Source: a candidate division CSSED10-310 bacterium
GTDB lineage: Bacteria > CSSED10-310
Direction: 5' to 3'
DNA length: 64,000 nt
Assembly: GCA_003558985.1 (NCBI GenBank)
Contig: PWNJ01000139.1
Coordinates: forward strand, 1,244 to 65,243
Part shown: positions 33,701-60,140 of the stretch, piece after piece
Layout: every line of letters begins with the position of its first letter
Numbering within the stretch: the stretch's first letter is position 1
The notes under the pieces: model-generated
Databases searched by the model: none
What the model saw: the letters and a program-made list of their open reading frames with translations, nothing else
Told to the model about the DNA's origin: nothing
Position numbers and translations under genes: made by a program

Positions 33701-35454
33701 TCTGCCTGTAACCAGTGATATGCCGTTTCCTCCAGTGACCATTCTATGTCCGCAGTAATCTTTGCCAGCATTGTATGTATTTCTTGAGTTTGTTGATCTG
33801 TTGTTTGTTCCCGAATTAAACTTTTATAAACCTGGGCCACCGTGTACATTTCAGGATCACCGTTATAACAAACCAAATAATTCCTTTCTTTCAATAAGTT
33901 TATAGCGCTTGAAACCTGCTGTTCCGGAAATCTTTTATTTAACAACCTTGTATTAAAAGGTTTCCTGAAAAACGAGAACAGTTTGAGCAAATCATGTGTG
34001 ATACCATTCAAATGGTTTATTCTGTCGTTATAAAATTGTTTGATCTCATCAGAAACAGGCATGGTAACCTGTTCATCAGATATCAGATGCCAGGAACCTG
34101 TTTCACAAACAAGAAGGTATTCGGCAATCCAATGATTCAGGATTTTAATAGCAAGACCCGGATTCCCTACAGAGTATTTGTAAACTTCATTAAAAAACCA
34201 TCGCGGCAAAGCATCGCCATGCAATGATTTGACCATAAGGCTTATTTCAGAAGCTGACCATGCGGAAAACCATATCACTGAAACTTGTTTTATCGTTTGA
34301 AATCTGTCCAGATCATCCTCATTAACTCGAAATATAACTCGCATATTTCGTTCTGCCAGTTTGTTAATAATACTCAGCAAACTATGAAAATTCTGTTGAA
34401 TGATTTTATCGGAGGTCACAATTAACAGAGATTCAGAAACAGAGTGCAGGAATGCAGATATTTCGTCTGGAATATGATCAGTGACATTACCAGAAATCCA
34501 TTTCTTTAAATAACCCAACTGTTTTACATTAATTTCCAGAACAGAGCATTCTTGAACATTTATTTCAGGCAGCCAATTTCTAAGCAATCTCCGCCGGCCA
34601 GAGCCCGGAAAACCAGCAAGAAGAAGACAGGGATCTGATTTATTTGTATACCACTCTGATAACTTTGTTTGCTCATCAGAACGCTCAACAAAAAAGCCCT
34701 CAGTGAAATATACCTGACGTATTGGATTTTTCGTATAAGCATGATTATAAAATGTGTTAATTATGTGCAATGCCATTAAAAAAACAGCATCTTTATCAAT
34801 AGAAATCTCTTTTTGAAGAAAATACTCAAATATTTGATCAAGCTTTTTTAAATCTGTTTTGTCAAAATCATTGAACTTGCTATCGAAACCTTCTGAGTCG
34901 CTTATAAGGCTTCTGATAACAAAGACCAGTTGCAAAGCATCCTTTTGATATTCATGGCCCTTTAATGATTGATTGCTTGAATTGTCCAAATGCTTTCCTG
35001 GTGGCAAACCATAATTGATCAGCTTGACTCGCGACTTGGGGTGGCCCGTTTCCGGGAGCCAGAAAACATGGGACCTTTTCAGTTTAATTGATGTATGCCC
35101 CAATCGATGCAGATATACTAGCGCCTGACAGACTTGTATTGTTATCGTAACTATTTCATCCGGCCGGAAGTGCTTATGCTCAATTGTCGGATAATCAAGC
35201 CACGGCATAGTATAAAACGGTTTTTCTGTTACAGGCCATACAGAATAATCTTTTACAGGCGCCAGTAAAAAATGCGAACATTTTGCCATGGTTTTGTAAT
35301 GAGATTGAAAATTCAGTATGTCCTCTTCGCCAGTATAAGCATTCAGCATTTTCAGGGCGACCGTTTTGTCTTCCCATACATCATGTGCTTTGTAGATTGA
35401 AAACAATGATCCCTTGTGTTTTAAAACAAGTGTTTTGTATCGTTTTGATACCAT
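30769..35454 (-). CDS. Multidomain signalling protein: kinase-like (predicted pseudokinase) / STAND-like NTPase / TPR array / GAF / HD-GYP phosphodiesterase
   Basis: The N-terminus has VALK, but the HRD position reads GHTSIKLKRSH and the DFG position reads INYG. A P-loop-like GFPGSGRRR lies at aa 281-289. Next comes a long TPR-like helical region, then GAF-like ADRALVFL...VGVIYADV. The C-terminus has HGHSSRVA...YLHDLGKIGI...HHERFDGKGYP (HD-GYP). Confidence 0.8.
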   Translation of the reverse strand: MVSKRYKTLVLKHKGSLFSIYKAHDVWEDKTVALKMLNAYTGEEDILNFQSHYKTMAKCSHFLLAPVKDYSVWPVTEKPFYTMPWLDYPTIEHKHFRPDEIVTITIQVCQALVYLHRLGHTSIKLKRSHVFWLPETGHPKSRVKLINYGLPPGKHLDNSSNQSLKGHEYQKDALQLVFVIRSLISDSEGFDSKFNDFDKTDLKKLDQIFEYFLQKEISIDKDAVFLMALHIINTFYNHAYTKNPIRQVYFTEGFFVERSDEQTKLSEWYTNKSDPCLLLAGFPGSGRRRLLRNWLPEINVQECSVLEINVKQLGYLKKWISGNVTDHIPDEISAFLHSVSESLLIVTSDKIIQQNFHSLLSIINKLAERNMRVIFRVNEDDLDRFQTIKQVSVIWFSAWSASEISLMVKSLHGDALPRWFFNEVYKYSVGNPGLAIKILNHWIAEYLLVCETGSWHLISDEQVTMPVSDEIKQFYNDRINHLNGITHDLLKLFSFFRKPFNTRLLNKRFPEQQVSSAINLLKERNYLVCYNGDPEMYTVAQVYKSLIREQTTDQQTQEIHTMLAKITADIEWSLEETAYHWLQAEEYKKGIQIGLEAAWEMINTGAYQDAEIWINELLQKSHTIPDVLKGKLMYAASEAALLRNRHRDSVKYAETALKLLPQTLKFLGIRTFMYQCIGQILMRETKFSEAEAFVQRGLQEIEHHNLETSVTLRILSAAIARHQGKYDQARAAVAIAFSNLKNISEPKEYNSAYATILNIETALLIDAGDFDKSRALIDKAIVISDKNSFGFYRTLFRNKRAELEASLGLFNDAERYLIESMRLLQETSIQSEYAAARQINGTIALYRGQYEDAESFYRHAIDTSLRLNRTLDVIQQKRMLAGLYRVRGNFDQADELLKSISDVLHGPAYISICVETGMLFMERACYTSAYRYFVQALNAIQKTHCFREEEHVFYALAMISFRLNQISRTKQFMNKACQKAVKKGNVLLMARLQLLQARLARLDRNRRLFYDSICDAEKLFQKCESKEGIMFVQEFLLRDVIDINISDSVWAKAIELWESARVFGSWHLVMDTAMTIGRLGLRRGNVHHVLEIVDLALEKARKMGCREYVWRFLRLRSQLFDHLNLGSASHESLLAADKNIDDIVQSLRSPAFVKSYKRRLDVQYVKKQLNIRKKDEKTPFSGTVQLPSLKKTSDVTGDERIAFSDEHYRLLRSTVRQFRKSVDRTELIDAVLNAVLRLTGADRALVFLKLSEQDVFEMAGSRRVGAVPELNSHLLRSSSIFQSVVLGKTHVFGTESLTKDSIKNVKMKRLLKDRSGLFVPMRSARDVVGVIYADVRKDSSDTLIKNVSLVQELADEAGLSLELSSLYNDIDKTFMSMVRALGAAVDAKDPHTHGHSSRVARYALTIGREMGLDLSDLRDLEISAYLHDLGKIGISGDILKSVKKLSVSEHHEIQQHPVIATRILKPVLKFARVAKAIRQHHERFDGKGYPDHLQANEIHPLARIIAISDALDAMTTYRPYQQPMSLEEAIGVILKNAGTQFDPEITAILEKLYKSGHFQLA

Positions 35455-40681: not shown

Positions 40682-42346
40682 TTACAGATACTGTTTCAAA
40701 ACACGCCAGTATAAATCATGTTCCTCAACTAAAACTCTCTTCGCAAGCGTCTCCGGTGTATCGGAAGCTAAAACAGGTACAACTCTCTGACCAAGAATTT
40801 CCCCGGCATCATATTCAGTGTTAACTCGGTGTACCGTTGCTCCAGTATAACGCACTCCGCTTCTTATAACCTCCTGATGAATACGTAAACCATACATGCC
40901 CTTTCCACCAAAAGCCGGAAGCAAAGCTGGATGAATATTAAAAACACGATCATTGAAACTTTTTAATACTCTGTCAGGTATTTTTTTCATATATCCAGCC
41001 AGAACAAGTGTATCAGCAGCACATTTTTCGATTACTTCAAAAAGCTTATCAGTTTCTTTACCGGGATGTGTAACTTGCGAAATATGATACGCTGGTATCC
41101 CTTGCTTTTTAGCTCTTTCCAATATAAATGCTCTGGAATTATTTGAAACCACACATACAATTTCTGCGTCCAGATCACCGCGATCAATTGCATTGCAAAG
41201 AGATTGCATATTTGTTCCACTGCCCGACCCCAGAACTGCTATTCTGGCCTTTCGGGTCTGTGTTTTTAATCCGATGTCATCCTTTGTACTAACTTTAACA
41301 TTTTCTTTGATTGAGTTTGACCATGTAATTCCGGGTCTGGATGAAACCTGTCCGATAATATAGTGACTGTATCCATGAAAGTTCAACGTGTCCTGAATGT
41401 TTTTCAAAGATTCACTGTTGACAGCAATAATCATTCCTAAACCCATGTTAAAGGTTCGTGACATTTCTGTTTGATCAATTTGCCCAATCTCCTGCATAAT
41501 CTCGAAAATCGCTGGAACGGGCCAACTGTTTTTATGCAGGGTAGCCCCGCATGAATCAGGCAGTATTCTGGGAAGATTTCCCGGAATTCCACCTCCGGTT
41601 ATGTGAGCTGCTGCTTTTACTCCTTCAAGACTTAAAAGAATAGAAAACTCATCGGTATAAATATGTGTTGGTTGAAGTAAAACTTCTCCCAAGGGTTGGC
41701 TTAATCCCGGCAACATTGATTCCAGGGGGTATTTTTTCCGATCTTTAAAAAGATTACGGACCAGTGAATATCCGTTTGAATGAAGTCCATTTGAAGGCAA
41801 TCCGATCAAAATATCACCGGGAACAACGTTTTTGGAGTCAAGAATTTTATCTTTGTCAACAATACCAACAGCAAAACCAGCAAGGTCATACTCATTAGCC
41901 TTGTAAAAATCCGGCATTTCAGCCGTTTCACCTCCAAGTAAAACACATCCGCTTTTTAAACATCCATCGCAAATACCGGCGATCACCTGTGCCAGCTTTT
42001 TACTATCAATTTTTGATGTAGCCAGATAATCCAGAAACGCTACTGGCTGGGCTCCGGTTACCAGCAAATCATTTACAGACATTGCGACAAGATCAATTCC
42101 AATTGTATCGTGGCGATTCATCTCAAATGCAATTTTCAGCTTTGTACCAACACCGTCTGTACAAGCAACCAAAACCGGATTCTTCCAATTGCCCGATGAA
42201 AGATTTATCATTCCAGCAAATGAACCGATATGGTCCATCGAGCAAAAAGTTCGCGTCTTGTCTACATGCGGCAATATGGCCTTCACAAACGCTTCACCGG
42301 CGTCGATATCTACCCCTGACTCTTTATAAGTGATTCTTTTATACAC
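40682..42346 (-). CDS. purMN: Bifunctional PurM-PurN fusion: AIR synthetase plus GAR formyltransferase
   Basis: The N-terminal half is PurM (YKESGVDIDAG, ACTDGVGTKL, GGETAEMP). The C-terminal half is PurN ([48 protein letters not shown]). Confidence 0.9.
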   Translation of the reverse strand: MYKRITYKESGVDIDAGEAFVKAILPHVDKTRTFCSMDHIGSFAGMINLSSGNWKNPVLVACTDGVGTKLKIAFEMNRHDTIGIDLVAMSVNDLLVTGAQPVAFLDYLATSKIDSKKLAQVIAGICDGCLKSGCVLLGGETAEMPDFYKANEYDLAGFAVGIVDKDKILDSKNVVPGDILIGLPSNGLHSNGYSLVRNLFKDRKKYPLESMLPGLSQPLGEVLLQPTHIYTDEFSILLSLEGVKAAAHITGGGIPGNLPRILPDSCGATLHKNSWPVPAIFEIMQEIGQIDQTEMSRTFNMGLGMIIAVNSESLKNIQDTLNFHGYSHYIIGQVSSRPGITWSNSIKENVKVSTKDDIGLKTQTRKARIAVLGSGSGTNMQSLCNAIDRGDLDAEIVCVVSNNSRAFILERAKKQGIPAYHISQVTHPGKETDKLFEVIEKCAADTLVLAGYMKKIPDRVLKSFNDRVFNIHPALLPAFGGKGMYGLRIHQEVIRSGVRYTGATVHRVNTEYDAGEILGQRVVPVLASDTPETLAKRVLVEEHDLYWRVLKQYL

Positions 42347-44678: not shown

Positions 44679-44756
44679 TTCCAGCGATTGTTTTCATCAG
44701 TAGATGCAAGTAACAGACATTGTAAATACCGATCTCATCCTGTATCTTTCACCTCT

Positions 44757-45965
44757 ATGAACGTATTGGATGACCAGAATAACATCTCCAACAAGCCTGC
44801 AGAGCCGCAAATTGTCGGAATTGATATCAGAAAAATGAATGATTTTGGCATTGGAACATATATTCGTCATCTAATACAGGGCTTGTCTGAATATGATATG
44901 CCAAATCAGATAAAATTTCATTTAATCATTAACAAACATATATCCAATCGTTCTTTTTCGTTATCAAAAAAACGTTTTCAAACAGTACATTTGAATAGAA
45001 GCCGGCGATCTCCACTTCAGGGGCATCTGCCATCGTCGCTAAATCTCAACTTGTTTCATGCCCCCCATTATCTGGCGCCTGACAATGGTTCAACTCCCAT
45101 GATTTTAACTGTGCACGACTGCATACATCTGCATCCGCCCACCATTCCGCAAGCATTTTCAAATATGACGTCGCTTTCACAATCAATGTTTATACGAGCC
45201 AAACGGTTCTATCATCAACAACTGGCTTCGGGAAAATTTAAACGGGCTGTCAAGTCGGCATCTGCAATAATTGCGGTTTCAAACTATTCAGCCACGCATC
45301 TGGTTGAACTGACAAACATTGACAGGCGAAAAATTTCAGTAGTTTACAATTGTGTTGACAAAATCTTTTTGAAAGACAGAAGTGACGCTGACAAACGTCA
45401 GTTTTGTCGTCTTTTCAATTTGCCGTATAAAGAATACGTCCTTTATTGCGGCAATGATTTATACCACAAAAACCTGTTAACACTATTGCTGGCCTGGAAA
45501 CACCTTCAGGAATCAAACAGTTCTCCAGCTCTTGTTCTGGCAGGGCCCCCTCGAAAAGAAATGATTTCACGGTATACCGAAATGCTCGGTATTCAAAATT
45601 CTGTTTTTTTAACTGATCGAGTGCCGGCTCATCAGATGCCTTTGCTATATAGAAGTGCACTGTGCCTTGTAAATCCATCATTAGCAGAAGGATTTGGACT
45701 ACCGGTAATCGAAGCCATGGTATCCGGAATTCCTGTAGTATGTTCAAATCTGGAGGTTTTCAGGGAAGTGACGGGCGGTCATGCATCTTTTTTTAATCCG
45801 AAAAAACCGGAGGATATTTGTGAAGTTTTGTTGCATAGTCTGCATAAACAGAAAGATATGAGTTCTATGTTAAATCTCGCATCAGCTTTTGCGCGAAAAT
45901 ACTCGATGAATGCTTTTGTTTCCGGTCACAAGCATGTATATAGTCGTGTGCTGGGAGGTTTGTAA
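44757..45965 (+). CDS. Glycosyltransferase, GT4 (GT-B fold)
   Basis: EGFGLPVIEAM (E-x7-E motif). The track start (44688) is TTG, so I trimmed to the first ATG at 44757. Confidence 0.8.
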   Translation: MNVLDDQNNISNKPAEPQIVGIDIRKMNDFGIGTYIRHLIQGLSEYDMPNQIKFHLIINKHISNRSFSLSKKRFQTVHLNRSRRSPLQGHLPSSLNLNLFHAPHYLAPDNGSTPMILTVHDCIHLHPPTIPQAFSNMTSLSQSMFIRAKRFYHQQLASGKFKRAVKSASAIIAVSNYSATHLVELTNIDRRKISVVYNCVDKIFLKDRSDADKRQFCRLFNLPYKEYVLYCGNDLYHKNLLTLLLAWKHLQESNSSPALVLAGPPRKEMISRYTEMLGIQNSVFLTDRVPAHQMPLLYRSALCLVNPSLAEGFGLPVIEAMVSGIPVVCSNLEVFREVTGGHASFFNPKKPEDICEVLLHSLHKQKDMSSMLNLASAFARKYSMNAFVSGHKHVYSRVLGGL

Positions 45966-47101
45966 TGAAGGTAGCTCTGGTACATGACTGGTTAACTGGC
46001 ATGCGAGGTGGGGAAAGAGTTTTGGAACTGTTTTGCTCTATGTTTCCACAAGCACCCATTTTCACTTTGTTTCACTATCCCGGAACCGTTTCAAAAATAA
46101 TTGAATCTCATCAAATAGTCGTATCTCGACTGCAAAAGATTCCATTCTCACAAACACACTATCGAATGATGCTACCTTTTTTTCCAAGTGCAGTCGAAAG
46201 TTTTGATTTGCAGGAGTTCGACTGCATAATTTCTACCAGTCATGCAGTAGCAAAAGGAGCCATAAAAGGTCGAAACAGTCTTTCAATTTGTTATTCACAT
46301 ACACCCATGCGATACATTTGGGATCAGTACGATACTTACTTTAAAAGTCCGCAGACATCCTGTACCGTTCGTTTTGTGATGTCATTTTGCAAAGACTATC
46401 TTCAATCATGGGATTTTGAGACGCGTAACAGAGTGGATTATTATATATCAAACTCACGTTTTGTCAGTCAGAGAATCCGCACCATTTATAATCGTGACAG
46501 TACTGTTATTCCGGCTCCGGTTGATTGCCGTTTCTACACGCCGGCAGGTACTGATCCGGATAATTTTTATCTGATAGTCAATGCCCCGGCGCCATACAAG
46601 CGGATTGATCTTGCAATTGAAGCATTCAACCAAAACGGACGACGACTAATTGTAATTGGTGGAGGAAAACAGTATAAGGCTCTGAAAAAACAAGCAAAGC
46701 AAAACATTGAGTTTACAGGGCGTATAAGTGATGAAGATGTCCGGGATCATTATCGCCGCTGCAAGGCAATCGTCTTTCCGGGTGTTGAAGATTTTGGATT
46801 GGTGCCTCTTGAAGTTCAGGCATGCGGCCGACCAGTTATTGCTTTTGCAAAGGGCGGCGTCCTGGAAACTGTCATTGAAGGCGTTAATGGACATTTTTTT
46901 CATGAGCAAACCTCTGAATCTTTGAATCAGGCAATCAAAACGTTTGAAATTATGTCATTCTCCCCGGATATTATACGTAAAAGAGCTCTTGAATTTGATG
47001 TACTTGAAATTGAAAAGAAATTGCGTCATTATTTGAATAGTGTTTTCTGGCCAAAAGGCTTTCCGCTATTGGACAAAGGAACGGTTCAGACGGCATGTTA
47101 A
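45965..47101 (+). CDS. Glycosyltransferase, GT4 (GT-B fold)
   Basis: MKVALVHDWLTGMRGGE N-terminus and EDFGLVPLEVQACGRPVIA. The start overlaps the upstream stop. Confidence 0.8.
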   Translation: MKVALVHDWLTGMRGGERVLELFCSMFPQAPIFTLFHYPGTVSKIIESHQIVVSRLQKIPFSQTHYRMMLPFFPSAVESFDLQEFDCIISTSHAVAKGAIKGRNSLSICYSHTPMRYIWDQYDTYFKSPQTSCTVRFVMSFCKDYLQSWDFETRNRVDYYISNSRFVSQRIRTIYNRDSTVIPAPVDCRFYTPAGTDPDNFYLIVNAPAPYKRIDLAIEAFNQNGRRLIVIGGGKQYKALKKQAKQNIEFTGRISDEDVRDHYRRCKAIVFPGVEDFGLVPLEVQACGRPVIAFAKGGVLETVIEGVNGHFFHEQTSESLNQAIKTFEIMSFSPDIIRKRALEFDVLEIEKKLRHYLNSVFWPKGFPLLDKGTVQTAC

Positions 47102-48534
47102 AACAGAATGAACGATATATAGTATTTTTTCAAGCTGTCTTCGATGTGTTGCTTACCTATGCAGCCTTGTATCTGGCGTATTATGTTCGTTTTTTCTCCG
47201 AGGTTTTCACGCAATCCGTACCAGTCGAGTTCGGTGTACCACCTATTCAAGACTTTCTTAATCTCAGGTATTGTTTAGTTATCGCATTTATCTGGCCTCT
47301 GGTATTTCGAGTAAATAAAATGTACCGAACAAAACGCGGAGTCCCGATTATTGATATTATCCTTTCAGTTGTTTCCAGTGTGACACTAAGCGCAACTCTG
47401 TTTCTGGTCGCCACGTTTTTTCTCAGACCCGTTCGCGAAGGTGTTGTTGTATCGTATTCTCGAGCTATGTTCGTAACTTTCTGGATTCTAAACATAATCC
47501 TTGTCCTGGCTTTTAGGCTTTCAACACGTTCAATGACTCACTACGCCCGAAAAAAAGGATACAATCAACGTCATATCCTTATTGCCGGCGCTGGAGAACT
47601 GGGCCAGGTGTTTGCTCAAAGGTTACGCTCAAATCCCGAAATGGGACTTCGCATCGTCGGATACGTCGATGACAGTCCCGGAAAACAGGGACAGGTTATA
47701 GATGGAATTACTGTTTTGGGAACACTCGACGACATATCAGACATAATCAGACGTGAGGGTATAGAGCAGGTCTATACAGCCTTGCCAATGACCGCCCATC
47801 GACGGATCTATCATCTGCTGAGTCAGATTCAAAACGAATGTGTCGATATTCGAATTATTCCTGATATTCTTCAGTACATAACTCTGCGGGCCGGATTCAT
47901 GAATATGGACGGTATTCCAGTAATCAATCTGACCGAAACACCTTTGTCTGGCGCGAATATTTTGATTAAACGCGCTTTCGACCTTGTTGTCGCATCAGTT
48001 ACACTGATCCTCTTCACACCCGTGATGCTGGTAATTGCTTTAATAGTTAAACTGACTTCCGGGGGCCCTGTTTTATACAAACAAACTCGAATGGGCATGG
48101 ACTTAAAAACATTCGATATATACAAGTTCCGATCCATGTATGTGAATGATCAAGGCCTGCAAGGTACTGGATGGACACGTGTTAATGATCCCAGAATAAC
48201 CCCTTTTGGACGTTTTATGCGTCGCTGGAACCTTGATGAATTGCCTCAGCTTTTTAACGTTCTGGCTGGCGACATGAGTCTTGTCGGCCCCAGACCTGAA
48301 CAACCGGCATTTGTTAAAGAGTTCCGGGAACGGTATCCACGTTATATGATTCGGCACAAAGTTAAATCAGGAATTACCGGCTGGGCCCAGGTTCATGGGT
48401 ATCGAGGCGATACCAGTATTAAGAAGCGTCTTGATTATGATATGCAATATATCGAAAATTGGTCGCTGTCTCTTGATATTAAAATTCTTGCCCTTACCGC
48501 ACTTCAAACATATAGAAATACAGCTCAACTGTAA
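47095..48534 (+). CDS. Polyprenyl-phosphate hexose-1-phosphate transferase (WbaP/WcaJ-type bacterial sugar transferase)
   Basis: Four N-terminal TM helices, a central Rossmann-like domain (ILIAGAGELG), and a C-terminal catalytic domain KRAFD...LYKQTRMG...DELPQLFNVLAGDMSLVGPRP...SGITGWAQV. Confidence 0.88.
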   Translation: MLKQNERYIVFFQAVFDVLLTYAALYLAYYVRFFSEVFTQSVPVEFGVPPIQDFLNLRYCLVIAFIWPLVFRVNKMYRTKRGVPIIDIILSVVSSVTLSATLFLVATFFLRPVREGVVVSYSRAMFVTFWILNIILVLAFRLSTRSMTHYARKKGYNQRHILIAGAGELGQVFAQRLRSNPEMGLRIVGYVDDSPGKQGQVIDGITVLGTLDDISDIIRREGIEQVYTALPMTAHRRIYHLLSQIQNECVDIRIIPDILQYITLRAGFMNMDGIPVINLTETPLSGANILIKRAFDLVVASVTLILFTPVMLVIALIVKLTSGGPVLYKQTRMGMDLKTFDIYKFRSMYVNDQGLQGTGWTRVNDPRITPFGRFMRRWNLDELPQLFNVLAGDMSLVGPRPEQPAFVKEFRERYPRYMIRHKVKSGITGWAQVHGYRGDTSIKKRLDYDMQYIENWSLSLDIKILALTALQTYRNTAQL

Positions 48535-52697: not shown

Positions 52698-53282
52698 TTA
52701 ACGTGTCTGATCAGATGGTTTTGTTTCTTTCGATTGATCCACCCGGATCAGGTTTTGTGTGTCAAAACCCCATTTTTCGGCGCGTTCCAGAATACCATCC
52801 AACTGTTGTTCCGCCATGACCGGTTCACGACTTAACACCCAGAAATATTTTAGCGATCGACTTGTTACAACCGCATATTCATAATCGTCACCGATTTCAA
52901 TTATTCGATACTGAGCTGAAAATGGCCAGAAGAAAGTGACCGATAACTCCGCATCATTACTGCTTCCACGAAATGATGCCCGGGCTTCCGCCTCTACCCA
53001 TTTTTCCTTTTGTGTATTATAACCACGATTTAAAACATGAATTTGACCGTCAGCCCTTCTGGAATAGGTTGCCGTCACATGTGTCAGATTGCGCTCAAAT
53101 CTGTGATCCGCCCTGGCAATTTCATACCATACACCGAAATAACGATCCGCATTAAAATTGGAAATCGCCGGGATATGACGTGTCGAACCGGCAACACATC
53201 CTGAAAAACATAATAACAGCAACATTTGGATAACACCTTTAATTTTAAACTTCAAGTTGATTTTGTCCATATTTATCTTCAA
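52698..53282 (-). CDS. blc: Bacterial lipocalin (Blc-like outer-membrane lipoprotein)
   Basis: Lipobox LLLCFSGC and the lipocalin signature FNADRYFGVWYEIAR. The true start is probably an internal Met. Confidence 0.85.
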   Translation of the reverse strand: MKINMDKINLKFKIKGVIQMLLLLCFSGCVAGSTRHIPAISNFNADRYFGVWYEIARADHRFERNLTHVTATYSRRADGQIHVLNRGYNTQKEKWVEAEARASFRGSSNDAELSVTFFWPFSAQYRIIEIGDDYEYAVVTSRSLKYFWVLSREPVMAEQQLDGILERAEKWGFDTQNLIRVDQSKETKPSDQTR

Positions 53283-53967
53283 GTGACCTGTGGTTTCCTT
53301 TCAAACGTGACTCTATCTCTGTCAGTATAATCTTTTCTTCAGATTCCGACAAACTTGCAGGCACTTCGATCGGTGTTCTGTCAGCAAAATGATAAACCTT
53401 TGAAAATGGTAACGGGATATATGTTTTAGACCATGATTTATGAAAGACAAATCGTCTGGGGGCAACTGCGCTGACAGTTATGATCTGCGCGCCTGTTTTT
53501 TGTGCCAATTTGACAATCCCCGGCTTGGCTTTATGCCGCGGACCGCGAGGGCCGTCAATAGTAATCGCACAGGCAGCCGGTTTTTTTCGCAAAATTCGAA
53601 TAACCTCCAGTAACGCTCTTGCCCCACCGCGACTGCTTGATCCTCTAATTGGCTTGCATCCCAGTTTTGTCATGACATATGCGAGCAAATTGCCGTCTTT
53701 CGATTGAGATACGATAACATGAAAACCTGTGGATGCATAACGCCCGATCATGGCTACATCATCTTCATGCCAATGCGCCAGAATTAACGGACGATTTTTC
53801 TGCAAAACACCGTTTTCCCACCACAGATTTTCTGTTTGAACACGCAATGTTGAATAATACACTTTGTAAAAAGCATAAATACCCCAGGCTACTATTCGGT
53901 CTTTTAACGGCATTGAATCATTCACAAGAAAAAGATAACAAGCTTGATCCATTTTGTCAGCATCCAA
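53245..53967 (-). CDS. DUF374-type lysophospholipid acyltransferase family protein
   Basis: ILAHWHEDD and SQSKDGNLLAYVMTKLGCKPIRGSSSRGGARAL, which is the DUF374 core pattern as I recall it. Confidence 0.7.
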   Translation of the reverse strand: MDADKMDQACYLFLVNDSMPLKDRIVAWGIYAFYKVYYSTLRVQTENLWWENGVLQKNRPLILAHWHEDDVAMIGRYASTGFHVIVSQSKDGNLLAYVMTKLGCKPIRGSSSRGGARALLEVIRILRKKPAACAITIDGPRGPRHKAKPGIVKLAQKTGAQIITVSAVAPRRFVFHKSWSKTYIPLPFSKVYHFADRTPIEVPASLSESEEKIILTEIESRLKGNHRSLEDKYGQNQLEV

Positions 53968-54132
53968 TTTTCACGTAATGCGATTCTGCGAATTATGGAT
54001 ATAATCCAGGTACAATTTGCGTTTCCGGATTGAACATCCGGGTTTACCCTGATATTGATATATGCTGAAATCGGGCTGTAATCAGGTATCTGATTCCGGA
54101 TTTCCAAAGAAGAGCTTAAAGCAGGAATTACA

Positions 54133-55560
54133 ATGAAGAACAAGCGTTTGCTTTTAATACTGCCTCATTTTTCTGAAAAACATCATTATGGCGCTATGAG
54201 CAAAGTGGCGCCGTCGCTGTTGCCAGTCAGTCTGGTCTATCTGGCAGGTTATCTTGAGGCACAGAATTATCAGGTAAAAATATTTGACGGACAGGTTGAA
54301 ACTATGAACAGCCATACAATTACCACGGCCGTTAATGAGTTCAAACCTGATGTTGTCGGAATTACCTGTATGACTCCCATGGTAGTTGAAACACACCTTG
54401 CTGCCAAAATAGTCAAATCGTGCCAACCATCGCCCATGGTTGTCGTTGGTGGTATTCATCCGTCAATTCTTCCGGAAGATGTTATCAAGGATAAAAACAT
54501 TGATGTCGTGGTACGAGGCGAAGGTGAAATTACATTTCATGAACTGCTTGAAGCTCTGCCAGACAATGATCTGGAACATATTCAGGGGTTGACTTACCAA
54601 AACAATGATTCGATTGTGCATACACCGGACAGACCACTTCTGGACAATCTTGATATTCTGCCCTTACCAGCTAGACATCTTGTCAACTATAATGGATATC
54701 ATCAGATCCCGGATGCCGTATTCGCGGAACCTTTGCGAGAAATACTGACCTCTCGGGGCTGTCCCTTTCAATGCATTTTTTGCTCTGCACGTTTTATCTC
54801 CGGCTACAAATACCGTTACCATTCACCTGAACGTGTTCTGGAAGAGGTGGATTTGCTGGTTAACAAGTATAACGCCAGACAAATTGCGGTGCTTGATGAT
54901 AACTTCGTGGTTGACATACAAAGAACAATTGATATCTGCAACGGCCTGCTTAAGCGCGGCTATCATAAAAAACTGGTATGGACAACCGCAGCCCGTGCGG
55001 ATCAGGTTGATTATGATTTGATGAAACTGATGAAGGAGGCCGGATTCAAACTGTTGTCATTCGGAGTGGAAACGGGTTCTGAACGTTTGTTGCAAATGAT
55101 ATGTAAAGGTGAAAACAAGGATCATATCAGCAGTGCCGTTCAAAATGCACATCGTGCAGGTCTGAAAGTGCGAGGAACACTAATACTTGGACTGCCTACA
55201 GAAACGCGACAGGAAAGTCTGGCCACAATACAGTGGGCCAAAGATCTAAGGCTTGATTTTGCCAAGTTTTCGCTGGCAACTCCGTATCCAGGAACACCTC
55301 TGTATGATATCGCCATAAAACAGGGAATGCGCACAGATGACTGGTCTCATTTCAGCTCAATGGCAGGTTTCGCTGATTATGACCCTGTGTTTGTTCCTGA
55401 GGGCAGAACACCAGCAGAACTGAAACAACTGCAAAAACAGGCCATGCGTGATTTTTATCTTCGACCACGCCAACTCTGGAGCTTGATACGGAATATTACG
55501 TCCTGGAAAGATATTAAAATGTATTACTATGGCGCACGATCTGTTTTAATCAAGAGGTAA
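54133..55560 (+). CDS. B12-binding-domain radical SAM protein (class B-like)
   Basis: N-terminal cobalamin-binding-like Rossmann segment (DVVGITCMT...VVVGGIHPS) and the radical SAM cluster motif CPFQCIFC. AGGAA lies upstream. Confidence 0.85.
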   Translation: MKNKRLLLILPHFSEKHHYGAMSKVAPSLLPVSLVYLAGYLEAQNYQVKIFDGQVETMNSHTITTAVNEFKPDVVGITCMTPMVVETHLAAKIVKSCQPSPMVVVGGIHPSILPEDVIKDKNIDVVVRGEGEITFHELLEALPDNDLEHIQGLTYQNNDSIVHTPDRPLLDNLDILPLPARHLVNYNGYHQIPDAVFAEPLREILTSRGCPFQCIFCSARFISGYKYRYHSPERVLEEVDLLVNKYNARQIAVLDDNFVVDIQRTIDICNGLLKRGYHKKLVWTTAARADQVDYDLMKLMKEAGFKLLSFGVETGSERLLQMICKGENKDHISSAVQNAHRAGLKVRGTLILGLPTETRQESLATIQWAKDLRLDFAKFSLATPYPGTPLYDIAIKQGMRTDDWSHFSSMAGFADYDPVFVPEGRTPAELKQLQKQAMRDFYLRPRQLWSLIRNITSWKDIKMYYYGARSVLIKR

Positions 55561-55563
55561 ATT

Positions 55564-56679
55564 TTGAAAGTTACCAAATTATACCAGTTAATAAACTCGC
55601 TTCATACTGCTGTCCCCAGACGTTTATTTCCCGGAGGTTACGCTCTGCCCCCCCTGCGCGTGGGGTGTGTCCTTACACACCGATGCAATCTGAAATGTGC
55701 GATGTGCTTTGTATGGAAGCACGGCAGTAATGAGTTATCTCAGAAAGAATTAACCACGGATGAATGGAAATCGGTTTTTGATCAGATACCATCACAAGCA
55801 ATCATTACCATGACAGGTGGTGAACCACTTGTTCGGTCTGACTTCAGCGAATTGTTGAAATATGCCTGTCGCCATCATCGTGTGCATCTGGTATCAAACG
55901 GCACCCTGTTTACTGATGAACTTGCAAAACTGTGCGTTGACCTGGCTCCCAAATCAATGTTTAGCAAGGGTCTTGTATCATTGGGGGTTAGCCTTGAAGG
56001 ACCAGAAACCATTCATGATGCAATGGTTCAAATCCCGGGTTCGTATGCCCGAACTACAAAGCTTCTGCAAAATGTAGCTACCATGAAAAAAAACGCTGGC
56101 AAACGCTACCCCTTGCTGGATCTGAAAATAGTAATTTGCCGCGAAACACTCAGTTCATTGCCACAACTGTATAGTTTGGCGAATGACCTTGAACTCGATA
56201 TTATCTCATATCAGCAATGCACAACCCAGGAATCAAGCTATGGAATTGACGATGCCCCGAAAAATGCCATCGCTGTGCCACCAGCAGATATTGAACCGAT
56301 ACCCCGGGAAGAATTGATACCTGTTCTGAAAAAACTCGTGCAAATGTCCGAACACAGAAAAACGGTACTAAGATTTAATCCCGATATGGATTTGGAACTT
56401 TTTGCAGATCGATACGAAAACCGGTTTCCTCTGCATCTGTTTACATGCGCAGCCGCATGGAGTGTGATGCATATCGGCCCCTATGGAACTGTTTTCCCGT
56501 GTTTTTCAATTTCAATGGGAAATGTCCGTTCAACACCTTTGACAAAAATATGGAATGGACCGGAATACAAAAAATTCAGGCAAAAACTCCGAAAAGCTGG
56601 TATTTTTGATGGTTGCACCGGGTGTTGTGTAATGAAACCTGATGCTCAAAAGATTAAAACTGCACGAGATTCACAATGA
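55564..56679 (+). CDS. Radical SAM protein with a SPASM/twitch-like C-terminal Cys domain
   Basis: CNLKCAMC, GGEPLV, and a C-terminal C-x19-C...GN...W...C-x2-CC pattern. It starts 3 nt after the previous stop. Confidence 0.8.
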   Translation: MKVTKLYQLINSLHTAVPRRLFPGGYALPPLRVGCVLTHRCNLKCAMCFVWKHGSNELSQKELTTDEWKSVFDQIPSQAIITMTGGEPLVRSDFSELLKYACRHHRVHLVSNGTLFTDELAKLCVDLAPKSMFSKGLVSLGVSLEGPETIHDAMVQIPGSYARTTKLLQNVATMKKNAGKRYPLLDLKIVICRETLSSLPQLYSLANDLELDIISYQQCTTQESSYGIDDAPKNAIAVPPADIEPIPREELIPVLKKLVQMSEHRKTVLRFNPDMDLELFADRYENRFPLHLFTCAAAWSVMHIGPYGTVFPCFSISMGNVRSTPLTKIWNGPEYKKFRQKLRKAGIFDGCTGCCVMKPDAQKIKTARDSQ

Positions 56680-57725
56680 AACCATCTGTTCTGTTTAAAA
56701 GATCTTTAAAGCAAAATCTGAATGCTCTGAAAATGAGATTGTTTCCTATGAACAAACCTGTCTGCAGGCACGACCCCGAATCAATCATGGTTTTTGTGAC
56801 CAATCGATGCAACTTTAAATGCAATACCTGTCCGTTTACAAATACATCACCATGGTCTCCACCAGACAATGTGCCGGATATGCCGGTTGATCTGTTCAGA
56901 TCAATAATCAATAAGTACTCTGGAGCGAAAATCCTGGGGCTCGTCGGCGGTGAACCTTTGCTGCATCCGAATCTGAATGAAATGATCACCATAGCTGCCT
57001 CAAAAAAGATTGCTGTGAACATTTCAACAAACGGTTCATTGCTGACTGAAAGAAAAACTCGTCAACTTCTTGACCTTCCGCTGACATCACTTAATATATC
57101 CGTGGATGCCGTCAATGAAGATGAGTTCAAACGCTTGCGAGGCGGCGATTCAAAAACGTATCAAACAGTTGTTACCAATGCAGCGCGGTTCGGTGAAATC
57201 AAAAAGAAGAAAAATAAAAACATGTCATTTAAACTGAGTTTCGTAACTGATTCACAAAATCTGTTCAGAATTCCTGAATATTTTGACCTGGCCCGTTCTG
57301 TAAGCGCTGACACAGTATTTTGCCAAAGTGTATTGTCCTATGAATGTTCATCAGTAACTGCAGGTGAAAGTGTTTTATGGGATACACCAGAGAACAGAAA
57401 TTTCCTGCAATCTTTAAAAACACCTGATGATATAACGTTTATTCCCCCACTACTCACTGCCCAAACTGACAAAAACAACACAACCACCAGTTGTGTTCAT
57501 CCATTTAAAATACTGGCCACAGACGGGGCTGGAAATGTGTCACCATGTTGTGTTATTCCTCCCCATAACCGGTTTGGAAATTTTTATAACGATATCATTA
57601 TCTGGCGAAAAGGAGCGGCTTTGCGGAAAATCCGTTCAGAAATGCTTGAAAACAAACCTGCTTCAGAATCAATATGTCTTAATTGCTGGGAACGATTTTC
57701 CATGCAACCCGATAAAAAACAATGA
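56676..57725 (+). CDS. Radical SAM protein with a SPASM/twitch-like C-terminal Cys domain
   Basis: CNFKCNTC, GGEPLL, and C-terminal CVHP...SPCCV...GN...CLNCW. It has a 4-nt overlap with the previous gene. Confidence 0.8.
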   Translation: MKPSVLFKRSLKQNLNALKMRLFPMNKPVCRHDPESIMVFVTNRCNFKCNTCPFTNTSPWSPPDNVPDMPVDLFRSIINKYSGAKILGLVGGEPLLHPNLNEMITIAASKKIAVNISTNGSLLTERKTRQLLDLPLTSLNISVDAVNEDEFKRLRGGDSKTYQTVVTNAARFGEIKKKKNKNMSFKLSFVTDSQNLFRIPEYFDLARSVSADTVFCQSVLSYECSSVTAGESVLWDTPENRNFLQSLKTPDDITFIPPLLTAQTDKNNTTTSCVHPFKILATDGAGNVSPCCVIPPHNRFGNFYNDIIIWRKGAALRKIRSEMLENKPASESICLNCWERFSMQPDKKQ

Positions 57726-58201
57726 AACGATTTTTTCAACAGCTTTTGAATGATCTTTTAAACACCTCCGATGATTCGGACGATAATCTTAAAAAACTGC
57801 ACAGTCTGGAAATGGCCGCATCAGTTATTCTTTTGGAAACCGCTGCAACTGACAAAGATATTTCAAACGAAGAACTGGCCGGAATTACCTGTATTTTGCA
57901 AAAGCAATTTAAACTGAGTGATGATGATACCAATACTTTGCTTGACGCTGCAGAGACAGCTCGTAAAAAAGCCATTGATCTACACCAGTTTACTCAAATC
58001 ATAAACAAAAACTGTTCAAAGGATCAAAAATCCCGGCTGATTGAATATGTCTGGCAAATCATTTACACAGACGGCAGGTTGGACAAACACGAGGATTTCC
58101 TTGCGCACAAACTGGCCCGTTTAATGCATATAGACCACAAGGATTTTATTGCTGCAAAACTGAAGGCCAGGCAAGCATCAAAGAAACGAAAATCAGGCTA
58201 A
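57722..58201 (+). CDS. TerB-family (tellurite-resistance TerB / DjlA-N-like) protein
   Basis: Two TerB-like half repeats (LLETAATDKDISNEELAGI and IIYTDGRLDKHEDFLAHKLARLM). It has a 4-nt overlap with the upstream radical SAM gene. Confidence 0.6.
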   Translation: MKRFFQQLLNDLLNTSDDSDDNLKKLHSLEMAASVILLETAATDKDISNEELAGITCILQKQFKLSDDDTNTLLDAAETARKKAIDLHQFTQIINKNCSKDQKSRLIEYVWQIIYTDGRLDKHEDFLAHKLARLMHIDHKDFIAAKLKARQASKKRKSG

Positions 58202-58782: not shown

Positions 58783-59895
58783 CTACGGCGCTTTTCCAAG
58801 CCGTTTTATTTCGCGAAATACACCAGCAAAACCAAGCCGCTGCTCCATATTCATCAACCGATTGTAACCGCGACCATACACATCATCGCGGTAATGTAGT
58901 CGAACTACCAGATCCGAATAACCCATTCCAGTCAATACCCTGCCCGCAACCCATTGTGCAAAACCTTCAATCAATTCATCTCCAGATAAATAAGGTGCAT
59001 TTTCTGCCTGCCAGGCATGAGCCAGTTCATGGGCAACCGTTTCAATACATATTGGTTGCGACAAACCCCGCAATATCTGAATTGTAAAATCGTTACCCCT
59101 ACGAATAAAACGACCGGATTCGCGATAGTGATCCGATCGAATCGGTTTACCAAGATCATCAACCAACTCGAAATTGATCTTCGTATTAATATTCATCAAC
59201 ATATCGCGTTCCAGATAACGCGAAACCTGGTTTATTACATTACGTAAACCGGTTTTAGTACTGACGGCTGTTGCGGCACATTCCCGGCACAATGAATTGC
59301 CATTGTTCATTCTGACAGGCCGATCACCAGTCGGACGCAGACAGGAAATACAGGAGTCTGTCTGTTCAACACAAGTCATGCAAAACTGTCCTTCAAATCC
59401 TTTAAAAACACTGTATCGCCCGGAAATGTAATCATGACAACCGGTACATCTGGGCGTATCATCATGACATGTGTGACAAACCTGTCGGCCTGAATCATGT
59501 AACCACTTTCCCGGAAGAAGTATGGATCGGCATAAAGAACAGCGGTCTGCCGATTCATTGCAACCTGAACAAAATGTGTTTCCATGACTGTTTTTAAAAT
59601 AAACTCTTGTTAATACATTACCGCAGGCGTCGCAACGGGCAGCAGTCCTTGAACATGACCTGCATATTACATCGCGATCCCCTTCCCGGGTCCCGGCTGT
59701 CGGCATACCGCAAGAATAACATCTCCCAGTCGTATTCTTACAATCTTCGCATACAGTCATTTCAGTGGAATTACTTTGAAACACAAAATACTCTCTGCTC
59801 ATTGCCTTCTGACAAAGATCACACCTGACAGAGGCAGCGCAGGGTAATATCCCGATTAAAAATATTGTAACTGATAAAAATAGTTTAAATCGCAT
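58783..59895 (-). CDS. Signal-peptide protein with six LIM-like C4 zinc knuckles and a C-terminal DA1-like HExxH peptidase domain
   Basis: I trimmed the start to ATG 59895 ([27 protein letters not shown] 5 nt upstream). It has six tandem C-x2-C-x13-19-C-x2-C units, then HELAHAWQ...EGFAQWVA. Confidence 0.7.
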
Positions 59896-60066
59896 GTTCT
59901 CTCCAGATTCATTAGCAAGAAAATCCCTATATATTTTCCTGATAAAGGCCACCAAAATCAAATTCTGACCAAATAAATCAACTTCGAAAGCTCTGTCCGT
60001 GTCGCAGCGGCGTTGCAGCAGCGTTGCCTGAAACACTCTGTTAATGTTAATGTATTCAAAAATGTC

Positions 60067-60075
60067 TGTTATAAT
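60067..60075 (+). promoter_or_regulatory. Extended -10 promoter element (TGTTATAAT) upstream of clpB
   Basis: TGnTATAAT at 60067-60075, about 65 nt upstream of the clpB ATG. The -35 is weak (TTAATG). The element lies in what the track shows as a spurious N-terminal extension of the divergent ORF. Confidence 0.45.
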
Positions 60076-60140
60076 AGGGTTTACATCTGGCATGAATCTT
60101 GATTAAAAAAACAGGTAGTTTGATTGGAGGTATTTTTATA

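Follow-up and report, generated by a model that had tools for sequence, protein, structure and literature searches.

The window analysed here, a 64,000-nucleotide stretch of contig PWNJ01000139.1, comes from an uncultured sediment bacterium of the candidate phylum CSSED10-310. At positions 54133-58201 it carries a genuine, conserved and uncharacterised operon of four plus-strand genes, three of them for radical S-adenosylmethionine (SAM) enzymes and one for a TerB-domain protein. The open reading frames (ORFs; products in amino acids, aa) match exactly the calls of a first-pass annotation of the same DNA:

g1, 54133-55560, plus strand: 475 aa, class B (B12-binding domain) radical SAM enzyme
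g2, 55564-56679, plus strand: 371 aa, TTG start, radical SAM enzyme with a twitch-like C-terminal auxiliary-cluster domain
g3, 56676-57725, plus strand: 349 aa, second radical SAM enzyme with a twitch-like C-terminal domain
g4, 57722-58201, plus strand: 159 aa, TerB-domain protein, translationally coupled to g3

The g1/g2 junction reads TAA-att-TTG, a 3-nt gap with the ribosome-binding site AAGAGG just 5′ of the g2 TTG, and the g2/g3 and g3/g4 junctions both read caATGAaa, each a 4-nt overlap. No terminator-like site was found on the plus strand within the four-gene block. Homologues at 45-86% identity lie on many independent contigs, and seven loci show the same gene order, so we take the four genes to be real. 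The single operon that the first-pass annotation had deduced from the gap and the two ATGA overlaps is borne out by these junctions and by the recurring order, and the synteny comparison that it had proposed found the g1-g2-g3 trio conserved in all seven loci.

Domains and cluster ligands of the radical SAM enzymes

The cobalamin-binding-like N terminus that had been noticed in g1 is a B12-binding domain in Pfam (PF02310, 83 bits against a cut-off of 32.1, residues 23-138), and the radical SAM match (PF04055) scores 80 bits. The CxxxCxxC motif of g1, CPFQCIFC, consists of C210, C214 and C217. These three cluster cysteines, together with G106, H109, E130 and E132, are invariant in 24 homologues of 43-86% identity, across which the GGIHP and RGEGE stretches are also kept. 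With a Rossmann B12-binding domain followed by the CxxxCxxC core, g1 has the domain make-up of a class B radical SAM enzyme, and it is predicted to use cobalamin. The family is large (5394 matches among 8000 candidates scored), and the nearest relatives carry source names of candidate division CSSED10-310. HpnJ (TIGR03471) was the top-scoring curated NCBIfam model, at 228 bits against a cut-off of 577.6, and BchE (TIGR02026) gave 204 against 481; because these scores are far under the curated cut-offs, g1 is a member of neither family. The solved structures nearest to g1 by sequence are AprD4 (3e-22) and then MgmA (9CCB), TokK, CysS and OxsB, all at E-values of 3e-22 or weaker. AprD4 bears the name of a radical SAM diol-dehydratase, not of a methylase.

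In g2 and g3, the PF04055 matches (62 and 74 bits) are joined by a SPASM match (PF13186, cut-off 21.5) that reaches 52.9 bits in g2 and a marginal 22.3 bits in g3. Homologue alignments of g2 hold C41, C45 and C48 invariant together with C295, C313, C351 and C354, with C355 nearly invariant; those of g3 hold C45, C49 and C52 together with C273, C291, C292, C334 and C337. The three motifs called in the first pass (CPFQCIFC in g1, CNLKCAMC in g2 and CNFKCNTC in g3) are thus all present with invariant cysteines. Its description of the g2 and g3 C termini as SPASM/twitch-like stands for the auxiliary-cluster cysteines but not for a full SPASM domain, whose seven to eight cysteines (CX9-15GX4C ... 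CX2CX5CX3C ... C) were not found in either protein. Because four to five C-terminal cysteines are invariant, in the pattern C-x17-C...C-x2-C, we read the domain as twitch-like with one auxiliary cluster and not as a two-cluster SPASM domain. The two proteins are distant paralogues (23-26% identity). Among 5.8 billion proteins the g2 family forms ∼45 clusters at identities of at least 33%, beyond which generic SPASM proteins follow. For g3, the matches listed include ∼21 clusters at identities of at least 45%, the named ones being CSSED10-310 or an unclassified "bacterium," and an exhaustive HMMER scan of 1.84 billion sequences returned 21 representatives at E ≤ 1e-30. g2, and particularly g3, are small, lineage-restricted radical SAM families without a characterised member.

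AlphaFold2 models of both proteins were confident (predicted local distance difference test scores of 92.3 for g2 and 91.5 for g3). In Foldseek, with template modeling (TM) scores of ∼0.45-0.65 overall, the g2 model gave generic SPASM/twitch matches (SkfB, SuiB, BlsE, PqqE, anSME, and DesII; TM 0.5-0.62), and the best folds for g3 were DesII, SkfB, BlsE, SuiB, MoaA, viperin, and BtrN. Sequence matches in the Protein Data Bank were weak, with SkfB, GDGT-MAS, and PqqE found for g2 over the core region alone and MoaA, DesII, viperin, BtrN, and BlsE for g3. The substrate class cannot be read from the fold because the Foldseek matches mix peptide- and sugar-acting enzymes.

The curated models nearest to g2 and g3 raise the question of cofactor or metalloenzyme maturation in a heme/siroheme-type (AhbD/NirJ-like), a tungsten-cofactor-oxidoreductase-maturase-like, or a pyrroloquinoline quinone (PQQ)/mycofactocin-like pathway. 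AhbD, the tungsten-cofactor oxidoreductase maturase, AhbC, MftC, and PqqE are indeed their best NCBIfam matches. However, all of these reach 15-30% of the curated cut-offs, most of them aligned over the radical SAM core alone: g2 scores 88 bits against 500 on AhbD, covering residues 37-209, and g3 scores 98 against 380 on the tungsten-cofactor maturase (a twitch subfamily model gave g3 87 against 170). Moreover, neither the Pfam scan of the window ORFs (covering 43 of the 47 of at least 150 aa) nor the syntenic loci showed an oxidoreductase that could be a client or any gene for tetrapyrrole, PQQ, or mycofactocin synthesis, and we judge such a role highly improbable. Assignment to HpnJ, BchE, PqqE, AhbD/NirJ, the tungsten-cofactor maturase, MoaA, viperin, or the ladderane B12 family was rejected throughout, with scores far under the NCBIfam and Pfam cut-offs. 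The first-pass view that the genes belong to no characterised radical SAM pathway therefore holds, no gene reaching the curated cut-off of any NCBIfam model, those for HpnJ, BchE, PqqE, AhbD, tungsten-cofactor maturase, and viperin included.

The operon across CSSED10-310

The g1-g2-g3 trio occurs in the window and in six further loci of the candidate phylum (L001, L006, L007, L009, L010, and L092). The fullest version is L092, which we found by a metagenome scan seeded with a glycosyltransferase C (GT-C)-like membrane protein. It reads, after a minus-strand DUF374 gene, PIN-like, GT-C-like membrane protein, g1, g2, four-helix-bundle, g3, TerB, with identities to the window of 80% (g1), 64% (g2), 52% (g3), and 44% (TerB). 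L009 and L006 have in common with the window a neighbourhood of purF, purB, MBL, dut, and DUF374, the last divergent from the operon, and then a Cys-rich protein and ClpB; PrxQ is also present in the window and L006. In L001, L007, and L010, a multi-pass membrane protein of 620-640 aa ends at or overlaps the g1 start, the four-helix-bundle gene lies between g2 and g3, and TerB is absent. Across the seven loci, TerB and the GT-C-like gene are each found in four, the four-helix-bundle gene in five, and DUF374 in four (and also in L093). Since L092 carries every element, the pan-operon is [GT-C-like]-g1-g2-[four-helix-bundle]-g3-[TerB] next to DUF374, where square brackets mark the variable members, and the window holds a reduced form of it. 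The GT-C-like and four-helix-bundle genes, both missing from the window locus, belong to the fuller, ancestral-looking operon. GT-C and TerB as mutually exclusive alternatives were ruled out, as L092 carries both.

The membrane protein, 620-700 aa long, ends within 13 nt of the g1 start or overlaps it in L001, L002/3, L007, L010, and L092. We call it GT-C-like because hhalign aligned its profile to those of PMT_2-type GT-C proteins (probability 95.6%, E-value 1e-8, N-terminal 214 columns), because its first loop holds an invariant DD, and because remote homologues in L050 and L066 bear C-terminal tetratricopeptide repeats (TPRs), as TMTC proteins do. A C-terminal substrate motif common to the large proteins 5′ of g1 homologues (GT-C-like proteins, GDSL/Big proteins, and giants of the type IX secretion system, T9SS) was sought and rejected, there being no similarity between the classes. 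The four-helix-bundle gene (PF05635/TIGR02436, "23S rRNA intervening sequence protein") lies between g2 and g3 at L001 10553-11164, L006 8980-9612, L007 10544-11149, L010 4729-5331, and L092 5451-6059, and a database protein of 558 aa (P0248) is a four-helix-bundle fused to g3.

Between DUF374 and g1, L092 and L093 carry the GT-C-like gene and a PIN-like one. The PIN-like gene, of ∼150 aa, is directly 5′ of the GT-C-like gene (L001 5446-6119, L092 565-1023, and L093 881-1297), and in L001 a faint RHH_3 gene comes before it; from their sequences the two look like a toxin-antitoxin pair.

The TerB domain that the first-pass annotation had described as an unusual partner was confirmed in g4 (PF05099, 94.4 bits against a cut-off of 24.4, residues 31-146). 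Its gene follows g3 in four loci (the window, L006, L009, and L092), and L001, L007, and L010 lack it, which makes TerB an accessory and not a core member. The antiphage systems Dionysus, Bunzi, and Shango contain TerB domains, and Ophion and pVip contain radical SAM enzymes (bioRxiv 10.1101/2025.09.30.679545), raising the idea of a defence operon in which a viperin-like enzyme works with a TerB membrane-surveillance protein. The g3 protein does score 72 bits on the PADLOC pVip model. Nevertheless, that match spans positions 2-150 of 257, the radical SAM core alone, and the NCBIfam prokaryotic viperin model (NF038283, cut-off 180) gives 69 bits for g3 and 41 for g2. g4 had no match in PADLOC, NCBIfam, or the Protein Data Bank; three of the seven loci do without TerB; and the paper that names both TerB and radical SAM enzymes describes two separate systems (bioRxiv 10.1101/2025.09.30.679545). 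The locus is, moreover, vertically conserved amid housekeeping genes (purF, purB, dut, and clpB) and is no variable island. We regard defence as barely credible. Other ter genes (the terZABCDE tellurite cluster) were not found in the scanned window ORFs or the syntenic loci.

Upstream of g1 lie two further features:

53245-53967, minus strand: DUF374/LpxJ-family acyltransferase gene, divergent neighbour (PF04028, 85.6 bits, cut-off 26.8)
53968-54132, no strand: divergent intergenic region between DUF374 and g1, 165 bp, holding a conserved palindrome

DUF374 has been renamed LpxJ, a family of lipid A late acyltransferases (PMC6148475). It sits divergently beside the operon in the window, L006, L009, L092, and L093; it is possibly linked to the operon in function, and a lipid A acyltransferase role is predicted for it. 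The first-pass annotation had called both divergent neighbours lipid-related: the DUF374 gene proved conserved, whereas the lipocalin Blc was found in this window alone and was discarded as a functional partner. When the intergenic regions of the window, L009, and L006 were aligned, the block GGATTGAACA..CCTGATA..GAT was kept and the remainder had diverged. This sole conserved block between DUF374 and g1 contains, in the window, the palindrome CCGGATTGAACATCCGG at 54025-54041, followed by CCTGATA..GAT, and it may be an operator or promoter element. Rfam gave no match to a riboswitch or RNA leader 5′ of g1. The region also contains a 24-aa ORF (54062-54136, plus strand, MLKSGCNQVSDSGFPKKSLKQELQ) whose stop overlaps the g1 ATG (ATGA). 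It was rejected as a leader or precursor peptide and is probably spurious, since neither L006 nor L009 conserves it.

That result bears on peptide or protein modification with the target encoded elsewhere, either a ribosomally synthesised and post-translationally modified peptide (RiPP) without an adjacent precursor or a protein matured in the way that MgmA acts on methyl-coenzyme M reductase. The RiPP maturases SkfB, SuiB, CteB, and PqqE are among the best Foldseek matches, with which g2 and g3 have the core fold and a C-terminal cluster domain in common. ApyD, a B12 radical SAM enzyme of RiPP biosynthesis, ranks third among the NCBIfam matches of g1 (184 bits; cut-off 750), MgmA stands second among its nearest solved relatives, and the operon encodes small helical proteins, TerB and the four-helix-bundle protein, the latter fused to g3 in P0248. 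Unlike the RiPP maturases, however, g2 and g3 keep four to five of the seven to eight SPASM cysteines, and the operon has no RiPP recognition element (RRE), precursor, protease, transporter, or immunity gene. There is no PF05402 match and no space for an N-terminal RRE/PqqD-like domain, with the cluster motif beginning at residue 41 in g2 and 45 in g3, as the first pass had argued. No small ORF is conserved, the 24-aa frame being the sole candidate, and TerB and the four-helix-bundle protein are not universal (four and five of the seven loci). The first-pass observation that no precursor peptide, sulfatase, or cofactor-pathway gene lies nearby likewise stood for the scanned window ORFs. Neither RRE nor peptide-export families (nor fatty-acid-synthesis families) appear in the top 25 families of 142 same-strand operonic neighbours sampled at random around g1-family genes. 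We hold a peptide or protein substrate to be quite unlikely.

Candidate substrates of the trio

Glycan genes recur around the more distant homologues. g1 homologues at 51-61% identity keep g2 (L002 and L004) and are accompanied by a methyltransferase, GT4, hexapeptide transferase, two LPG_synthase_TM proteins, and an epimerase in L002 and by GT4, GT2, PMT_2, and LPG_synthase_TM in L004. Two independently found contexts of g2 homologues (34-37% identity) contain two GT2, two GT4, Mannosyl_trans2, Wzy_C, and PMT_2/TMEM260 (L091) or a GDSL protein and PMT_2 (L090). Clustering of neighbours over 88 loci, 81 of them from a genome scan, yielded SPASM radical SAM enzymes (36 loci), a main GT2 cluster (33), an NAD-epimerase-like cluster (13; named from sequence, with epimerase Pfam matches in the L002 copy), a second GT2 cluster (9), GT4 (8), an aminotransferase-like cluster (8; DegT-like, judged by sequence), and flippase-like LPG_synthase_TM proteins (7). 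The best models for the main GT2 cluster are AglJ, PpgS, Dol-P-hexose transferase, and ArnC, every score falling under its cut-off. This GT2, which resembles polyprenyl-phosphate-sugar synthases, is encoded within 100 bp of g1-family genes at 16 loci, and at 14 of these both genes share a strand. Among the 142 sampled neighbours, we counted Glycos_transf_2 23 times, PMT_2 6, GT1/GT4 4, DegT and Polysacc_synt 2 each, and LPG_synthase_TM, Glycos_transf_4, YfhO, DUF2304, and Hexapep 3 each. Three remote g3 relatives (P0377, P0395, and P0411) appear as fusions of GT2 with a radical SAM enzyme. In the window itself, a GT4-GT4-Bac_transf operon (WbaP/WcaJ-like, with CoA_binding_3) at 44688-48534 on the plus strand lies 5.6 kb 5′ of the radical SAM operon. 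It is kept in L009, and at least its transferase is kept in L006. Its domains point to a neighbouring module for the initiation of polyprenyl-phosphate-linked glycans.

The first-pass annotation had held a non-peptide substrate to be as plausible as a RiPP. The genomic context favours the non-peptide side and leans toward glycan or glycolipid rather than acyl-chain chemistry. Our preferred but tentative reading, to which we give somewhat less than an even chance, is that the operon uses anaerobic radical chemistry to tailor a lipid-linked sugar, or a glycolipid or lipopolysaccharide (LPS) head group, bound for the envelope. The proposed substrate, order of steps, and chemistry of each enzyme would be as follows. 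The three radical SAM enzymes would form a cytoplasmic module acting on the sugar of a membrane-anchored precursor (a polyprenyl-phosphate sugar, a glycolipid, or an LPS head group). g1 would perform a C-methylation or an HpnJ-like carbon-skeleton rearrangement. g2 and g3, each with a radical SAM cluster and one auxiliary [4Fe-4S] cluster, would catalyse a further oxidation, epimerisation, dehydration, or C-C step, by analogy with the sugar-acting twitch enzymes BtrN, DesII, and BlsE. In the related genomes, the GT-C-like protein coupled to g1 would then take over the lipid-linked product and transfer it, or present it, on the outer face of the membrane, as ArnT, GtrC, and arabinosyltransferases act after ArnD or DprE1/E2 have tailored a lipid-linked sugar. 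In the window version, which has no GT-C gene at the locus, the trio adjoins the LpxJ-type gene, and the small TerB protein would be an accessory, perhaps a membrane-associating or metal-binding helper.

Several known systems resemble parts of this scheme. Tailoring of a lipid-linked donor ahead of GT-C transfer is an established principle, as with ArnD and DprE1/E2 (PMC11127046). Relatives of the operon likewise combine GT-C-like, GT2, and flippase-like proteins with radical SAM enzymes, in the manner of three-component periplasmic glycosylation (GtrA/B/C; ArnC/D/E/F/T; polyprenyl-P-ribose synthase with flippase and GT136; DprE1/E2), but the window operon carries none of the three canonical components, and the GT-C call in the relatives is a remote profile match. 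The paper on three-component glycosylation makes no mention of radical enzymes (PMC11127046), and a search of the literature that paired radical SAM with GT-C, polyprenyl-phosphate, or lipid-carrier terms found no paper connecting them.

A second parallel is HpnJ, which works with HpnI, HpnK, and HpnL in the pathway to the cyclitol ether head group of bacteriohopanetetrol and is the best curated model for g1. The hpn set combines a glycosyltransferase with a membrane protein, which we take to belong to the LPG_synthase_TM family, and the same combination accompanies the g1 relatives in L002 and L004. HpnJ, a radical SAM enzyme with a B12 domain, is thought to rearrange a lipid-bound amino sugar, contracting a glucosamine ring (PMC13459092). 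The operon differs from the hpn system in its two additional twitch radical SAM enzymes, in the GT-C-like partner of its relatives, in the distance of g1 from the HpnJ cut-off, and in the lack of hopanoid genes (shc, hpnH, hpnI, and hpnK) among the scanned window ORFs and in the syntenic loci. A third parallel is with twitch enzymes acting on sugars and nucleosides (BtrN, DesII, BlsE, and SpeY), which have the same C-x17-C...C-x2-C pattern and no peptide-recognition domain. DesII and BlsE are among the best structural matches of g3 and g2, but at TM scores of ∼0.45-0.65 and 12-18% identity, the peptide-modifying SkfB and SuiB match equally well.

The main rival is tailoring of lipid chains, in which the trio would methylate, cyclise, or cross-link unactivated carbons in the acyl chains of membrane lipids or lipid A, as Gms with Gmm/Grs does in archaea. 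The enzyme set, SPASM/twitch and B12 radical SAM enzymes clustered together, matches that of Gms/Gmm/GrsA-B gene clusters for tetraether bridging, methylation, and ring formation (PMC11214058 and PMC13459092). The conserved neighbour of the operon is an LpxJ-family acyltransferase, and the host is an anaerobe and would therefore need O2-independent C-H chemistry. Furthermore, at six archaeal loci (L020 6978-9869, L038 8565-11389, L048, L056, L059, and L061) in Bathyarchaeia, Thermoproteota, Asgard archaea, and Alkanophaga, B12 radical SAM genes with 33-36% identity to g1 lie directly 3′ of AhbD-like SPASM enzymes. These SPASM enzymes carry N-terminal extensions of 115-170 aa. Since an N-terminal extension of ∼100 aa (COG4001) on an AhbD-like SPASM enzyme is the published signature of Gms (PMC11214058), the six loci are probable Gms-Gmm pairs (glycerol monoalkyl glycerol tetraether synthase and methylase). 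By contrast, g2 and g3, from bacterial hosts, have no such lipid-binding extension, their cluster motifs beginning close to the N terminus as given above. The AhbD match of g2 is partial and far from the 275-310 bits that probable archaeal Gms enzymes reach over their full length (extensions of 115-128 aa). A ladderane-type lipid B12 radical SAM model gave g1 123 bits against a cut-off of 360. The coupled partner in the relatives is the GT-C-like protein, and no Tes/Mss homologue and no acyl carrier protein, Fab, or Pls gene was found in the scanned window ORFs or among the sampled operonic neighbours. On this balance we consider lipid-chain tailoring unlikely. If it were true, the operon would be a bacterial counterpart of archaeal Gms/Gmm chemistry and would bear on the origin of branched, bridged lipids that serve as sediment biomarkers.

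Several observations count against glycan or glycolipid tailoring. The window operon holds no glycosyltransferase, flippase, or GT-C gene, and the link rests on relatives, in which the GT-C call is itself remote, Pfam and NCBIfam giving no match to the membrane protein. A polyprenyl-phosphate sugar synthase GT2 and a flippase are absent from the window operon and from the CSSED10-310 loci and appear near distant g1 homologues only (L002, L004, and 33 of the 88 loci). The glycan-rich statistics come mostly from homologues 30-36% identical to g1, which may differ in function, and the archaeal relatives at a similar distance pair with Gms-like enzymes acting on lipid chains. Homologues of g1 at 43-59% identity in Acidobacteriota, Planctomycetes, and KSB1-like genomes occur without g2, beside unrelated genes such as those for a kinase, a permease, or giant T9SS proteins. 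Finally, the fold searches fail to tell sugar-acting from peptide-acting twitch/SPASM enzymes.

A bolder version of glycan tailoring, which we consider doubtful, is that the trio would be a previously unrecognised radical SAM tailoring arm of GT-C-dependent envelope glycosylation, remodelling a polyprenyl-phosphate sugar before it is flipped, and that the same logic would be widespread in anaerobes. The remodelling could be a C-methylation, ring contraction, epimerisation, or deoxygenation, and the acceptor could be LPS/lipid A or another envelope molecule. This logic would extend to bacteria of the candidate phyla radiation, DPANN archaea, and Omnitrophota, where B12 radical SAM genes adjoin GtrB/ArnC-like GT2 genes. 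If the glycan or glycolipid reading is true, the operon would be the first case in which tailoring by radical SAM enzymes is linked to extracytoplasmic glycosylation of the GT-C type. The envelopes of uncultured anaerobes would then be predicted to contain unusual sugars (C-branched, ring-contracted, or deoxy), and a function would be at hand for the many B12 radical SAM genes of candidate phyla that lie beside polyprenyl-phosphate glycosyltransferase genes.

Further observations in the neighbourhoods and the window

Giant polypeptides with several radical SAM modules occur among the remote g3 relatives (P0392, P0370 of 1444 aa, P0395, P0411, and P0377), some of them joining GT2 to one or two radical SAM/SPASM modules. 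P0392, at 1927 aa, holds a B12-binding domain, four Radical_SAM domains, and three SPASM domains in a single protein. They could be true fusions or gene-calling artefacts. Peptidase_U32-family proteins recur beside g1-family genes (5 of the 142 sampled neighbours; for example, L060 3390-4562); this family takes in O2-independent hydroxylases such as UbiU/UbiV. In KSB1/Zhuqueibacterota-like metagenome-assembled genomes, a g1 homologue of 44-46% identity, without g2, lies between giant GDSL/Ig-repeat proteins with T9SS-type C-terminal tails and FG-GAP proteins, a context unlike the others (L008 20-7774, L015 142-3987, and L016 1230-9827).

Three other genes of the window drew our attention:

58783-60093, minus strand: 436-aa Cys-rich protein
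40682-42346, minus strand: 554-aa ORF with AIR synthase (PurM-like AIRS/AIRS_C) and formyltransferase (PurN-like) domains
30769-35454, minus strand: 1561-aa protein with MalT-like TPR, GAF, and HD (HD-GYP-like, HD_5) domains

The Cys-rich protein, which had no Pfam or NCBIfam match, has a single predicted transmembrane helix at residues 71-89 and paired CxxC...CxxC repeats of a zinc-ribbon/LIM-like kind, about seven in all. Its C terminus bears a metalloprotease-like motif, HELAH, and it lies beside the operon in L006 and L009 too. The 554-aa ORF looks like a purM-purN fusion, and the 1561-aa protein looks like a large signalling protein.

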